From: Candidatus Levyibacteriota bacterium
GTDB taxonomy: Bacteria > Patescibacteriota > Microgenomatia > Levybacterales > UBA12049
Assembly (NCBI GenBank): GCA_963716145.1
Contig: OY970292.1
Coordinates: 822,528 to 886,527, forward strand
Direction: 5' to 3'
Length of the DNA: 64,000 nucleotides
Translations under genes and position numbers: made by a program
The notes under the pieces: generated by a model
The model's input: the letters and a program-made list of their open reading frames with translations, nothing else
Databases searched by the model: none
Told to the model about the DNA's origin: nothing
In this document: positions 5,188-17,235 of the stretch, one piece after another
Position numbering within the stretch: position 1 is the first letter of the stretch
How the letters are laid out: every line of letters begins with the position of its first letter

Positions 5188-7377
5188 TCAAAAAGAGACT
5201 TTATACAGCTTTGTGTTTTGGTTTTGGTATACAAGCGTTCCCATCTTTTGGAATTTTTGCTCAGAAAGCGTAGGGTATTTTTGCTGCTCTAAAGACCCAA
5301 TGAAAACGTACTCCACTTTATATTTTTGGAGCAAGTTCTTAGCTACTTGTAAATCCTGGGTTTCATATATGGTTTTTATTTCGTTAATTCTAGGTGCGGG
5401 AATATCATATGTTCCGCGCCAGAGCCATTCATGCACTGTCCAGCCTAGAACAGTCGGGAGGCCGGTATTTGATGATACGCGGGCAAAATCAGTGTATGAG
5501 TCGCTTTGCGCTTCAAGAATTACAGGCTGACCCGTTATGTTTTTGTTAATCCACTCAATTGCAGTATAGTCATATGGGTAGAGAGTTTTAAGATAATCAG
5601 TTCCGTCCAGACCCTTTTGTGTTTTGAGATCGCCATAATACGATTTAATCGCGAGATAAGGATAGGCCATGACGAGGGTTATTAAGCTAATAACTAATAA
5701 CAAATAACTAATAACTAATAACGTTTTTTTATAATTTATAATTTGAAATTTGAAATTTGAAATTATTCTCACGATTATGTATCCGCAGGAAAGCGAGAGC
5801 ATTATAAATGCTTGAAAAACGAGTTTAAACATCGTATTTGCCCGGTAGTGAGCCGGGTAAATGTCTTTTAGGTAAATGAATTCAGGAAGAATAATTAGAA
5901 AAGTTGAGAGAATCAAGAGCAATAATACGAATATGTCTGCCTGCAAAAACTTTTTGGCTTTCCTCATAAACAGCAAATAGGAGAAAACAAAGAAGTAGAA
6001 GAACCCATAAAGTATGAGCAATTGCCACCAATATGAATGTTGGCAATGCTTTGCTTCAAACAGAAAAGGACCGATTTTACCGATTTTATTTAAAAAATTT
6101 GGGGCGCAAAGTATGCCAATACCGGAGGCAAAGGGCTTGAAAAAGTAGCTGTAGGGCATTGAAAATACAACCAGGCTTACAAAGACTATAAAAATAGAAA
6201 AAAAGAAGTTTATTAATTTTTTAGAATAAACATAAAAAAGCACAAGCGATGCAAGAAGGAGGTAAATCCCCCCATCCCATGCATTAGTCATATACATCAC
6301 TGAAAGTAAAAACCCAATCAGGATTAGACTCGGAAAACTCGGAATACTCTGAAAACCAGACTTTCTGACTGTCAGATTTTCAGACGACCTGATATTGCTG
6401 ACGTTCTGAGTTTTCTGAGTGTTCTGGAAAAAAGCAAGTAGTACAGCAATTGTGAGCAGTACAAATGGAATATCAAGAACATGTCCGTGCAGATCCGCAA
6501 CCACCCATGAATAAATCGGAAATTCATGAATTGTGTGATCTATAAAACGAGTCGCGTTGGGGTACCAGTATGAGTTCGGGAAGCTTAAGGGTAAGAATTT
6601 AAGCTGCCATAAAGGGACAGGATGCTCGGCTGTGTAGGGTTTGAAAAAAGCATAAAGAATGTGTAGATTTCCTGCAAAAGTGACAAGGCTGGCTGTTAAA
6701 AATCCTGCAGCAAAGTTTTTGATGCCAGCTATTTTTTTGTTTTTTTGCATAAGGGCATAAAGATTTGCGCCTAGAGAAAAGGCTTCTGTAAAGCAGAATG
6801 CAAAAATTGTGGAAAGCATGAGATTGAATGTAATTTTGGAAGGAATGTCTGATAATCTGGTCAATACAGCTGTAGCCAAGTGACCAAAGTAATAATAATT
6901 GATAAAAAACGGAGTAAACCACATGTCTTTTGGGGGGAAGTAGTCCGCTCTAAGAATTGAGTTTATAAATCCAAAATCCATATATTTTTCAAGCCCATGA
7001 ATCTCAGGATTAAAAGAATGAATATATGCCCAGAAAAATAGACTAAGCAGGAATAGTATTTCTTCAAAAAGCAATAGCTTCCAGTTAAGTTTTAGGATTT
7101 GTAGGGTTTTTGACCTCAATGGGATCAGTATGAAAAGCAGTATTGCAAGAAAAATAAAAATAAGAAAGGAGAAGAATTGAGTAAATGGGGTTAGATGCAA
7201 AACCCCAAAAATAAAAATCGCGTAAGACGTAAAAGCAATGCCGAGTATTTTTGAGAAAATATATCCGCGGTCAAAAAACTTTTCAAACAGGAAAAATGTT
7301 AGCGGCAAAAATCCGGTTTCCAACATTAAGATAGTTAACCACCATTGTAAAACTGAGTGAATATCGGAAGGAAGCAT
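5188..7377 (-). CDS. large polytopic membrane protein, DUF2298/GT-C-like (possible oligosaccharyl/glycosyl transferase)
   Basis: 729 aa, more than 12 predicted TM helices plus a C-terminal soluble domain; contains in-frame heptamer repeats (TAATAAC x5, AATTTGA x3.5). Confidence 0.4.
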   Translation of the reverse strand: MLPSDIHSVLQWWLTILMLETGFLPLTFFLFEKFFDRGYIFSKILGIAFTSYAIFIFGVLHLTPFTQFFSFLIFIFLAILLFILIPLRSKTLQILKLNWKLLLFEEILFLLSLFFWAYIHSFNPEIHGLEKYMDFGFINSILRADYFPPKDMWFTPFFINYYYFGHLATAVLTRLSDIPSKITFNLMLSTIFAFCFTEAFSLGANLYALMQKNKKIAGIKNFAAGFLTASLVTFAGNLHILYAFFKPYTAEHPVPLWQLKFLPLSFPNSYWYPNATRFIDHTIHEFPIYSWVVADLHGHVLDIPFVLLTIAVLLAFFQNTQKTQNVSNIRSSENLTVRKSGFQSIPSFPSLILIGFLLSVMYMTNAWDGGIYLLLASLVLFYVYSKKLINFFFSIFIVFVSLVVFSMPYSYFFKPFASGIGILCAPNFLNKIGKIGPFLFEAKHCQHSYWWQLLILYGFFYFFVFSYLLFMRKAKKFLQADIFVLLLLILSTFLIILPEFIYLKDIYPAHYRANTMFKLVFQAFIMLSLSCGYIIVRIISNFKFQIINYKKTLLVISYLLLVISLITLVMAYPYLAIKSYYGDLKTQKGLDGTDYLKTLYPYDYTAIEWINKNITGQPVILEAQSDSYTDFARVSSNTGLPTVLGWTVHEWLWRGTYDIPAPRINEIKTIYETQDLQVAKNLLQKYKVEYVFIGSLEQQKYPTLSEQKFQKMGTLVYQNQNTKLYKVSF
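5690..5765. repeat. two heptanucleotide tandem repeat tracts inside CDS 5188..7377: (TAATAAC)x5 (one variant unit) and (AATTTGA)x3.5
   Basis: direct reading: ctaataactaataacaaataactaataactaataac ... aatttgaaatttgaaatttgaaatt; encodes LLVISYLLLVISL and NFKFQI on the minus strand. Confidence 0.8.
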
Positions 7378-7382
7378 AAAAA

Positions 7383-7922
7383 TTATTTGAAAATTTCGGT
7401 AAGCTTTGAGATAGCGAATATATTGTTGGGCAAATCCTGTATTTTCGCCATGTCATTTAGCCAAAAAAATTTAGTTTTAGTATTCGTTTTTGCTGCGTGC
7501 TTGATAAGAGATAGATCATCATCAATATAAATATCAAGGTTCAATTTATTAATAATTTTTTGTTTAAAAACATGAGGCTGGATATTTTCAAAATTGAAAT
7601 ACATCTCATCAAATATTTCATTTAATCCATATCGCTTTATTAGTTTTTCGGTGCGTTTTTCCAGAAATTTAAATCGGCTGGAAATAAGATAGAGCTTGTT
7701 ATTTTTTTTGGGAAGTCTTTTTAGAAAGTCCATATTTTCTTTAATTGCGGGTCTGAGAAATGGTGTATGGCTTGCTCTTCTAAGTAGTTGCTCGGGGTAT
7801 GATGGAATTCTGTAAAGCAGTATGCCATTGTCCTTTTTCTTATAAAGCTTGTCAATTAATTTTGGTGAAACAAAGGGAGGGTAGTCAATAAAAACTTTGT
7901 CCAAATCAAAACCAATATTCAT
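7383..7922 (-). CDS. HAD-superfamily hydrolase-like protein (5'(3')-nucleotidase-like)
   Basis: 179 aa; N-terminal FDLDKV matches HAD motif I DxDx(T/V); IYIDDD matches motif IV. Confidence 0.45.
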   Translation of the reverse strand: MNIGFDLDKVFIDYPPFVSPKLIDKLYKKKDNGILLYRIPSYPEQLLRRASHTPFLRPAIKENMDFLKRLPKKNNKLYLISSRFKFLEKRTEKLIKRYGLNEIFDEMYFNFENIQPHVFKQKIINKLNLDIYIDDDLSLIKHAAKTNTKTKFFWLNDMAKIQDLPNNIFAISKLTEIFK

Positions 7923-15934: not shown

Positions 15935-15948
15935 TGCCTAAATAAATC

Positions 15949-17235
15949 CTAAGAGTTACAAATTAGCTTTGCTACTTTTTCACCCAGCTCTACAGCGTAA
16001 TTAGTTCCCCGGTCCCATGGATAGACCTGCTGCATATTGGCAAGATAGACATTTTTTAGAGGTGTTGTCATAACGGGAATCATTTTTGAATAGTTTGTGG
16101 GGATAACCGGTTGGGCAAAAGGCGCTTTGAAAAATTCGTAGCCAACGAGGCTTTTTTTGTAATCAGGATTTATTTTTCTCAAAAAAGGATCAACCAGCTT
16201 TAGTTTTTCTTCTTTATCCATAAGATATCTTGGATCAGTTGTTTCATAGTAATTGCCAAGATAAACTAAATGCTCCCCATCATAATGTTTTTTGTCCATG
16301 AAATTGGTGTGCTCAACAACTGCCATAACCGGTGATGTTGAGTCGCATACGCTTAGCCAATAGGTATTTCCTTTTAGAAATGGCTTCTTCAGGCGAAGTA
16401 CTAAATTGGTAGCACCCAGATTTTTAAGACTCTTAAATTTTATTTTATATTCTTCAGGCAACTGTGGCGCTATTTTGAGAAAAAGGAAAGAAGAAAGGGT
16501 AAATATGACGCGGTCGAAATTTTCCATTTTCCATTTTCCATTTTCCATTTTCCATCTAACGCCAACAATATTATTATCTTCTCTAACTTCAACGATTTCA
16601 GCATTGAAAATAACTTTTCCTCCCTGTTTTTCAATTTCTTTGACAAGGTGATTTGCGAAGCTCAGAAATCCTCCTTCCGGATAAGCCAGTGATGGCGTTC
16701 GCTTAGCGAGGCGTCCCCACAGCCAGGCAAGCGAAACATCACCTGCTGAGCGCCCAAATTTATTAAGAAATTGGGGTTCCCAGATCATCTTATATGCCTT
16801 TTTTCCCATAGCAATGGGCAGAAAAGTGCTCGCATTTATTTTCTCAAGCGGCTTCCAAAAAGGGTTGAAGCGGATCGCGCCGACAACTGCTGCCATGCGA
16901 ATACGGTCAATAAGAGACAATTTAGGAAAGAGCAAAACTTGTTTTGGTGAATCAAACTGAAATATTTCACCGTCAACGTAGACTGATGTTTCAGGTCTTT
17001 TTATTATGACCCTATGTCCGATTTCGGCAGCCAAGCCCAAAATAAATTTATCATTGGTGAACCAATGATGGTAATGTTTTTCAAATGTCCAGTCCCACTC
17101 TTTTTCCTTAAATCCGATTGCCAGCCCCCCCGGTTGGGAGTCTTTTTCGAAAATAGTAACATCGTGCCCTTTTTTACTGAGTTTATATGCGGCTGACAAG
17201 CCGGTAAAACCGGCTCCGATTATTGCAATTTTCAT
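15949..17235 (-). CDS. FAD/NAD(P)-binding oxidoreductase (amine oxidase / phytoene desaturase / UDP-galactopyranose mutase-like superfamily)
   Basis: 428 aa; N-terminal dinucleotide-binding motif MKIAIIGAGFTGLSAAYKL...IFEKDSQPGGLA; internal in-frame (TTTTCCA)x5 repeat encoding WKMENGKWKMEN. Confidence 0.6.
   Translation of the reverse strand: MKIAIIGAGFTGLSAAYKLSKKGHDVTIFEKDSQPGGLAIGFKEKEWDWTFEKHYHHWFTNDKFILGLAAEIGHRVIIKRPETSVYVDGEIFQFDSPKQVLLFPKLSLIDRIRMAAVVGAIRFNPFWKPLEKINASTFLPIAMGKKAYKMIWEPQFLNKFGRSAGDVSLAWLWGRLAKRTPSLAYPEGGFLSFANHLVKEIEKQGGKVIFNAEIVEVREDNNIVGVRWKMENGKWKMENFDRVIFTLSSFLFLKIAPQLPEEYKIKFKSLKNLGATNLVLRLKKPFLKGNTYWLSVCDSTSPVMAVVEHTNFMDKKHYDGEHLVYLGNYYETTDPRYLMDKEEKLKLVDPFLRKINPDYKKSLVGYEFFKAPFAQPVIPTNYSKMIPVMTTPLKNVYLANMQQVYPWDRGTNYAVELGEKVAKLICNS
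16520..16554. repeat. (TTTTCCA)x5 heptanucleotide tandem repeat inside CDS 15949..17235
   Basis: aaattttccattttccattttccattttccattttccatct. Confidence 0.85.

Follow-up and report, generated by a model that had tools for sequence, protein, structure and literature searches.

Heptanucleotide microsatellites read in frame within envelope-biogenesis genes of a Levyibacteriota genome

Long simple sequence repeats (SSRs) with a 7-nucleotide unit are over-represented in prokaryotes, and the accounts in PMC4679880 and PMC4692102, citing Mrazek et al. 2007, explain this excess by polymerase slippage. Heptamers are also established agents of phase variation. The intragenic (AAGACTC)n tract of the NeuO O-acetyltransferase gene of Escherichia coli K1 ranges from 3 to 53 copies across 64 genomes, with 65.6% OFF (PMC13001214), and Haemophilus influenzae carries heptamers in the hmw1A and hmw2A promoters, an intragenic (AATTTTG)14 in hmw1A, and (AACAACC)n in TonB-receptor genes (PMC2651432, PMC8262952). 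Species adapted to phase variation enrich their SSRs near N-termini (PMC3315296). Here we describe heptamer arrays in a 64,000-nt stretch of Candidatus Levyibacteriota bacterium assembly GCA_963716145.1 (contig OY970292.1, forward-strand positions 822,528 to 886,527; hereafter the window, with coordinates counted from its first base). The long coding arrays lie inside genes of envelope biogenesis: a DUF2298 membrane-protein gene, two GT-C/PMT_2 glycosyltransferase paralogs (GT-C1 and GT-C2), an amine-oxidase-like oxidoreductase gene, and a FemAB-family peptidoglycan-bridge gene. The original prediction had taken such tracts for candidate slipped-strand phase-variation switches. We consider it moderately probable that they are instead lineage-wide heptamer microsatellites of the kind known to be over-represented in prokaryotes, which act as rare frameshift hot spots. 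What is unusual is that these arrays are translated, conserved in position between genera, and homogenized in concert. There is no evidence for tuned high-frequency ON/OFF switching, and adaptive switching is unproven.

Periodicity at 7 nt is far in excess in this DNA. The window contains 10 perfect period-7 tracts of at least 2.5 copies, compared with 0.13 expected under an order-3 Markov model. A lag scan of the window finds near-perfect arrays of about 30 nt or more only at lag 7 (7 to 10 regions) and its multiple 14, with none at lags 4 to 6 or 8 to 13; related loci show arrays at lag 7 or 14, save single lag-8 and lag-12 matches. An excess of long heptanucleotide SSRs, both over expectation and over other units of 5 to 11 nt, is thus found in the window and its relatives. 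This resembles the pattern of Mrazek et al. 2007 as those two papers present it: an excess at the 7-nt unit and at no neighboring unit length, many different units, and slippage as the presumed cause. The difference is where the arrays lie. In that work, as reported, coding repeats mainly have multiple-of-three units and heptamers are mostly intergenic, whereas most of the longest arrays in the window (7 of 10) fall within open reading frames (ORFs), in frame, at codons conserved between genera, and their units evolve in concert. A survey of related DNA (24 loci, ∼321 kb, collected around the array-bearing envelope families) likewise places 34 of 40 arrays inside ORFs. The genomes described in the available text of PMC4679880 and PMC4692102 include none from the Candidate Phyla Radiation (CPR), to which this lineage belongs.

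The unit vocabulary is diverse. At least 12 different heptamer units occur within the 64 kb, and four units recur at two or three sites: CTTACTT (11096/14580), CAAATTT (5740/60860/30248), GGAAATT (30297, and in relatives L036 at 1943 and L016 at 2327), and GTTATTA (5687, and L032 at 9311). Only 222 AT-rich cyclic heptamers are free of stop codons in every frame, which accounts for part, though not all, of this recurrence at unrelated sites. Single-motif families (cyanobacterial STRR; TAACTGA of Beggiatoaceae and cyanobacteria; GGGAATC of Xanthomonas) are similar in that few-copy tandem heptamers are scattered, some of them directly upstream of start codons, but each such family draws on a single motif or a few and lies mostly between genes, and forward TAACTGA cannot be read through (PMC4679880, PMC4692102). 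Membership in such a family is ruled out by the number of units and by the translation of most long arrays.

Tandem Repeats Finder (TRF), reading of the sequence, and the ORFs confirm that the predicted tracts are where they were said to be and are in frame: five arrays sit within the long minus-strand ORFs of four genes (Table 1). One long coding array, (CAAATTT)x5 in the FemAB gene, had been missed; the gene lies outside the coordinates of the original prediction. The relative positions of six coding arrays in their ORFs are 0.33, 0.54, 0.58, 0.70, 0.74, and 0.77, i.e., mid-gene or C-terminal-ward. Gain or loss of one unit does shift the frame, as predicted: in silico, a change of one or two units in either direction truncates each protein, FemAB included, no more than about 35 residues from the tract, and a change of three units adds or removes seven residues. 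T-rich units encode hydrophobic helices and A-rich units hydrophilic variable loops, judging from hydropathy and alignment variability, and these helices and loops are segments under low sequence constraint.

Table 1. Heptamer arrays of the window and the genes that carry them (units on the plus strand and in coding orientation where they differ)
Feature	Position	Strand	Description
DUF2298 membrane-protein gene	5188..7377	-	729 aa; two adjoining heptamer arrays; Pfam PF10060, E 3.6e-94
DUF2298 array B	5687..5722	-	plus strand CTAATAA x5.1; coding (GTTATTA)x5, encoding LLVISYLLLVIS, transmembrane helix; TRF
DUF2298 array A	5728..5764	-	plus strand TTTATAA x2.4 (5728-5744) and AATTTGA x3.6 (5740-5764); coding (ATTTCAA)x3.6 then (ATTATAA)x2.4, encoding SNFKFQIINYK, loop between helices; TRF
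GT-C/PMT_2 glycosyltransferase paralog 1 (GT-C1)	10591..12285	-	564 aa; Pfam
GT-C1 array	11096..11126	-	plus strand GAAGTAA x4.4; coding (CTTACTT)x4.4, encoding LTSYFLLLTS, last transmembrane helix, aa 387-397
GT-C/PMT_2 glycosyltransferase paralog 2 (GT-C2)	13887..15587	-	566 aa; Pfam
GT-C2 array 1	14580..14612	-	plus strand AAGAAGT x4.7; coding (TCTTACT)x4.7, encoding FLLLTSYFLLL, aa 326-336
GT-C2 array 2 (degenerate)	14387..14407	-	coding (AGTATTW)x3; helix homologous to GT-C1 array helix by paralog alignment; TRF
FAD-dependent amine-oxidase-like oxidoreductase gene	15949..17235	-	428 aa; Pfam
Oxidoreductase array	16519..16555	-	plus strand ATTTTCC x5.3; coding (TGGAAAA)x5.3, encoding WKMENGKWKMEN, variable loop, absent in some orthologs
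FemAB-family peptidoglycan-bridge gene	60545..61570	+	341 aa; Pfam
FemAB array	60860..60894	+	(CAAATTT)x5, encoding SQISNFKFQISN, hypervariable loop; same unit as DUF2298 array A
Imperfect (AAGTTAA) array	27602..27634	+	first codons of rplD (ATG at 27594), an essential gene; TRF
(AAGTTCA)x2.9	38766..38785	+	within methionine aminopeptidase gene (map)
(AAATTTCAAATATC)x2.9 and (GGAAATT)x4, side by side	30248..30324		fill the rplV-rpsC spacer; TRF
Imperfect intergenic arrays CAATTTT and ATTGAAA	51368..51476		between divergent genes; TRF
Imperfect intergenic arrays upstream of fusA	20364..20469		CAAAGCG at 20364-20390; TTTTGAA x7.6 at 20418-20469
Further imperfect intergenic arrays	33223-33339 and 43206-43267		TRF

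The claim that (GAAGTAA)x4 lies in each of the two GT-C paralogs stands as to the common unit, but the arrays occupy different, non-homologous transmembrane helices (aa 387-397 in GT-C1 and aa 326-336 in GT-C2), and homology between the GT-C1 array and GT-C2 array 1 is ruled out. The site of GT-C2 array 2 is conserved and its array longer in relatives L032 (9466-9505), L014 (81-121), L003 (9451-9480), and L031 (9474-9507). The paralog alignment suggests that the array-bearing helix may be older than the GT-C duplication, or that both helices may have gained arrays independently.

The nucleotide periodicity goes beyond what the peptides require. Per 100000 synonymous-codon shuffles, the observed lag-7 score was reached 0, 1, and 1 times for the three transmembrane arrays (0 for DUF2298 array B) and 16, 370, and 1850 times for the loop arrays; the tracts are DNA-level microsatellites, not peptide repeats. 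Selection for repeated peptides, with 7-residue periodic helices or loops and the nucleotide period as a by-product, is accordingly ruled out by the shuffling, and we give it almost no weight. Three units do make one 7-residue period, and NeuO heptads have a protein-level role, but the arrays span only 31 to 37 nt, or about 1.5 to 1.7 heptads, concerted changes hit different residues in each of the three frames, and arrays are present in noncoding spacers too.

Protein constraint does leave its mark on repeat purity. The units had been described as base-perfect throughout, which is not the case: in the (TAATAAC)x5 tract the third unit differs by one base. Read in coding orientation, this unit of DUF2298 array B is GTTATTT instead of GTTATTA, the array's only imperfection, and the change removes an in-frame TAG. 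In the GT-C2 arrays of relatives L002 and L001 one unit is TCTTTCT instead of TCTTAAT, which removes a TAA. We attribute both departures to avoidance of stop codons. From one copy to the next, each base of a heptamer unit moves through all three codon positions, and array DNA is conserved far past ordinary synonymous sites because homogenization and protein selection act together on this three-position reading.

Base-perfect units had been taken to argue for recent or ongoing slippage rather than ancient duplication. As far as age is concerned, comparison with orthologs contradicts this: arrays occur at the same codons down to 37% protein identity, the most distant match being DUF2298 array A in the Collierbacteria relative L011. 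Codon alignments of GT-C1 show seven orthologs, at 57 to 72% protein identity, with the same codons, register, and total length (five units of NNNACTT). The variable triplet at this site is CTT x4 in the window, TAT x5 (perfect) in L001, TAT/AAT/TAT/AAT/GCT in L002, TAT/AAT/GCT in L033, and TAA, ATT, ATT, GTT, GTT in L003, and L031 has GCTATTT x3. Identity is higher between units of one genome (0.757) than between orthologous units of different genomes (0.631), and 0 of 10000 permutations attained the observed value. The 31-nt GT-C1 array is identical in the window and L034 even though gene identity is 69% and the third base is shared in just 52% of identical-residue codons. Insertion of the tracts recently, relative to orthologs, is ruled out by the absence of any length difference at the GT-C sites.

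The other sites tell the same story. GT-C2 array 1 has TCTTACT in the window and L033 (one mismatch in L033), TCTTAAT in L002 and L001, and GTTATYA in L032 and L003. For DUF2298 array B, L032 shares the window's unit (GTTATTW), register, and T variant; at array A the unit is ATTTCAA in the window, ATATTAA in L002, a 14-nt unit x2 in L032, and (CTCAAAA)x4.4 in L011. Within the oxidoreductase loop, L003 and L017 keep decayed arrays in the same register, and 14 codons are missing in L002 and L033. The FemAB loop holds perfect arrays with four units in four lineages (CAAATTT in the window, GGAAATT x4 in L036, CAAAATA x4 in L037, and TCAAATT/TCAAATG in L038), and between FIQLEPN and AAHPLFTKY it measures 34 to 56 residues among the roughly 70 homologs displayed out of 120. 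These alignments show the arrays to be ancient and fixed in position in orthologs, and to evolve in concert.

Conservation of array DNA well past the synonymous-site level, and of array positions in orthologs, could in principle reflect a function in DNA or RNA: tandem sites for a protein that covers about 7 nt per monomer, such as a cold-shock-type OB-fold protein, or an mRNA signal that directs membrane targeting or pauses translation. In its favor, a limited set of units is used repeatedly at unrelated sites and across genomes, spacers immediately upstream of start codons are filled by arrays, and CspB, according to the review in PMC4679880, binds heptamer repeats, one protein to each heptamer. 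We nevertheless find such a function improbable. Units at one site differ fully by lineage (FemAB CAAATTT/GGAAATT/CAAAATA; DUF2298 ATTTCAA/CTCAAAA), with no motif conserved; their composition follows the coding requirement, T-rich in helices and A-rich in loops; homogenization under three-frame coding constraint already accounts for the DNA conservation; and no candidate binding protein was identified.

The prediction of ongoing slippage fared better than that of recent origin, as unit gain or loss is seen in relatives. In the survey of 24 loci, all 34 intragenic arrays fall within ORFs that are long and intact. A further ENA contig, L039 (ERZ27254767), has three more arrays within called ORFs and one array that has split its gene, and overall about 36 of 37 intragenic arrays keep the frame (∼97% ON). 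The split gene is an orthologous GT-C. Its full-length form, P0080 (577 aa), is found on three contigs, and its cluster also holds P0242 (419 aa) and P0241 (160 aa), both on L039. P0242 matches P0080 exactly for 403 residues and then loses frame within the array; putting a 14-nt (2-unit) duplication, TATACTT AATACTT, into L039 restores P0080 exactly. Two FemAB orthologs, P0130 and P0291, differ by one 7-residue (21-nt, 3-unit) indel and zero substitutions. The indel lies in a second FemAB loop near residue 205, where L038 also has arrays. In the comparison of copy number in related genomes, as originally proposed, examination of about 30 multi-member clusters yielded this one −2-unit frameshift allele and this one 21-nt in-frame indel; 120 GT-C1 homologs show no seven-residue steps at the array segment, all being about full length. 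These pairs of alleles show that whole-unit slippage occurs in nature at these sites and inactivates the gene.

Other traces are less direct. One contig coding for the same protein as P0080 breaks off at the start of the array (P0244, ending at ...KNK). A search with the GT-C1 C-terminal domain for stand-alone downstream pieces returned fragments only, mostly on contigs of 1 to 3 kb; a few of them on contigs of 5 to 71 kb (P0301, P0313, and P0345) start inside the array helix or immediately to either side of it, which is only suggestive of remnants of OFF alleles. The GT-C orthologs P0050 and P0269, from one 90% cluster, have a hyperdivergent stretch of about 35 residues ending at the array helix, which may represent compensated frameshifts. 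The window's own GT-C1 protein is 100% identical to P0001 (on a 1.14-Mb contig), a single-member cluster, and scans of genome and metagenome collections returned no relative of the window genome above 72% identity; named relatives of GT-C1 are mostly Levybacteria/Levyibacteriota (Microgenomates, CPR).

The original prediction had allowed that a genome-wide 7-mer mutational bias might partly explain the tracts. This caveat was right, and most of the explanation lies there: the 7-mer bias is a general property of this DNA, since shorter or imperfect arrays also sit in rplD, map, the L17 tail, and several spacers, including those of the ribosomal operon. One of the tracts cited for it as intergenic (38768-38787) in fact lies within map (Table 1). 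The rplD array, at 27594-27640, encodes the lysine-rich N-terminus of L4, MSKTSLKLKVKSSK, and another imperfect heptamer array at 42518-42544 encodes part of the L17 C-terminal extension. The rplV-rpsC spacer (30248-30327) is almost all array (14-nt unit x2.9 and GGAAATT x4), up to the rpsC ribosome-binding site. In the rplC-rplD gap, a 21-nt repeat x2.4 at 27475-27524 occupies an acidic open frame whose end overlaps the rplD start; this frame may be an L3 C-terminal extension cut off by a frameshift.

Whether mutability itself has been selected is the chief alternative. On this account the arrays are true contingency loci, by which envelope-glycosylation and peptidoglycan genes go reversibly OFF and ON, for instance in escape from phage or partner-cell recognition. 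We regard it as possible but rather unlikely. A 7-nt unit is not divisible by 3, and any 1- or 2-unit change truncates the protein; arrays are strongly concentrated in envelope-biogenesis families across many genomes; perfect arrays have been kept at the same sites over deep divergence; and a natural OFF allele (L039) equals the ON allele minus 2 units, with no other difference. The end of P0244 at the array start and the fragments P0301, P0313, and P0345 around the array helix point the same way, as does the established phase variation of NeuO, the hmw genes, and TonB-receptor genes. Like NeuO, the window has heptamers in ORFs of surface-polysaccharide-modifying enzymes, with full-length product in one of three phases and three units equal to seven residues. 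As in H. influenzae, AT-rich heptamers lie at surface-protein genes and a change in unit number gives frameshifted alleles (PMC2651432, PMC8262952).

The dynamics of those switches, however, are different. The NeuO tract is 5′ and ranges from 3 to 53 copies, with variation among strains as well as inside cultures, and 65.6% of genomes are OFF (PMC13001214); arrays of the window type have 4 to 5 copies, are mid-gene, constant across orthologs, and ON in ∼97%. We found no long, variable 5′ tract of tandem heptads of the NeuO poly-psi variable-number tandem repeat type. The H. influenzae tracts have 6 to 38 copies that vary by strain and are strain-specific rather than cross-genus, and tetranucleotides dominate that genome. 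Known heptanucleotide switches overall have about 6 to 53 units, and phase-variable species enrich SSRs near N-termini (PMC3315296). The window arrays share with phase-variable loci an SSR inside an ORF and a unit that is not a multiple of 3; they do not show a large OFF share with differing copy number or a tract near the ORF 5′ end. Short arrays also lie in essential genes and spacers, and reversibility was not observed. Of the predicted phase-variation switches, slippage and truncation hold up, whereas about 36 of 37 arrays being ON, 4 to 5 units long, mid-gene, and of constant copy number at orthologous sites speaks against switching.

Under the microsatellite explanation that we favor, the source would be a 7-nt-specific slipped-strand or misalignment process, lineage-wide in Levybacteria-like Microgenomates. 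Arrays originated long ago at few sites, in transmembrane helices and variable loops of five envelope-biogenesis families, and have remained at those codons since. Mispairing of neighboring units keeps the units of one array alike, giving concerted evolution. Protein selection imposes two constraints, fixing array length so that the frame is kept and forcing unit copies that would make a stop codon to deviate. Unit loss or gain still happens and then frameshifts the gene, as shown once in a relative (L039) and as we infer for the window genome; the OFF state is rare and probably mostly deleterious.

Several observations weigh against this explanation. If OFF is deleterious, double slippage via a frameshifted intermediate should be slow, and perfect arrays should decay; their persistence therefore needs frequent slippage with a tolerated OFF state, or a putative length-neutral conversion. 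Among the relatives' loci, five envelope gene families account for 36 of 37 intragenic arrays, and none was found there in about 160 kb of other genes, including SecY, EamA, a mechanosensitive channel, and type IV secretion system (T4SS) components. Such a distribution is what selection for mutability would predict, although the enrichment is partly ascertained because loci were collected around these families. A contingency system peculiar to CPR/Microgenomates, using 7-nt units only, held by the protein at a single ON length, and at the same codons since before the Levybacteria-Collierbacteria split, is a tentative and again rather doubtful proposal; in a variant, an undescribed heptamer-specific, length-neutral conversion keeps coding microsatellites pure.

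Assembly or sequencing artifact is the least credible source of the arrays, and we put its likelihood close to nil. More than 15 independent assemblies (NCBI, JGI, ENA, and Logan) carry arrays at matching codons, and all ORFs concerned are intact. There are, on the other side, apparent indel errors on the same contig. Between 28700 and 31000, rplB and rpsC, each broken twice, and rpsS and rplV are split across frames, several at short A/T/G runs. Because these genes are essential, local assembly indel errors are the most likely cause of the splits. Bins labeled Lysobacterales, Gammaproteobacteria, Limnocylindrales, and Methylomirabilota (L002, L004, and L005; P0019 and P0029) hold Levybacteria-like syntenic loci, and these contigs are probably mis-binned.

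CPR bacteria are uncultured, ultra-small, and mostly attached to other cells, and their envelope is for that reason the interface with hosts and phages. The searchable literature yielded no link between CPR bacteria and SSR hypermutation. If the arrays switch envelope-glycosylation and cell-wall genes, they would offer cheap bet-hedging in genomes of about 1 Mb with few regulators. The conservative reading as microsatellites still gives a clean natural case of an in-frame microsatellite evolving in concert, with each unit base constrained at three codon positions, and the loci also illustrate how stop-codon avoidance breaks repeat purity and how arrays make new loop and helix sequence. The strict limit to 7 nt is relevant to a long-standing but untested proposal, in which the bacterial replisome naturally slips in steps of about 7 nt. 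When metagenome bins are annotated, a frameshift in a gene at one of these sites should not be written off as an error.

Rfam and tRNA scans gave no match at the tracts; the only hits are five tRNAs at 58 to 60 kb, clustered at 58150-60523 (Ser-GGA, Arg-CCG, Ser-CGA, Arg-GCG, and Ser-TGA). A T4SS-like block at 561-5143 (TraG/VirB4-like ATPase, TraC-like protein, PrgI plus CarboxypepD_reg protein, and pilin) adjoins the glycosylation cluster, and synteny of the cluster (5.2-17.2 kb) with this T4SS-like/pilin block is kept in L002, L003, and L031-L033.

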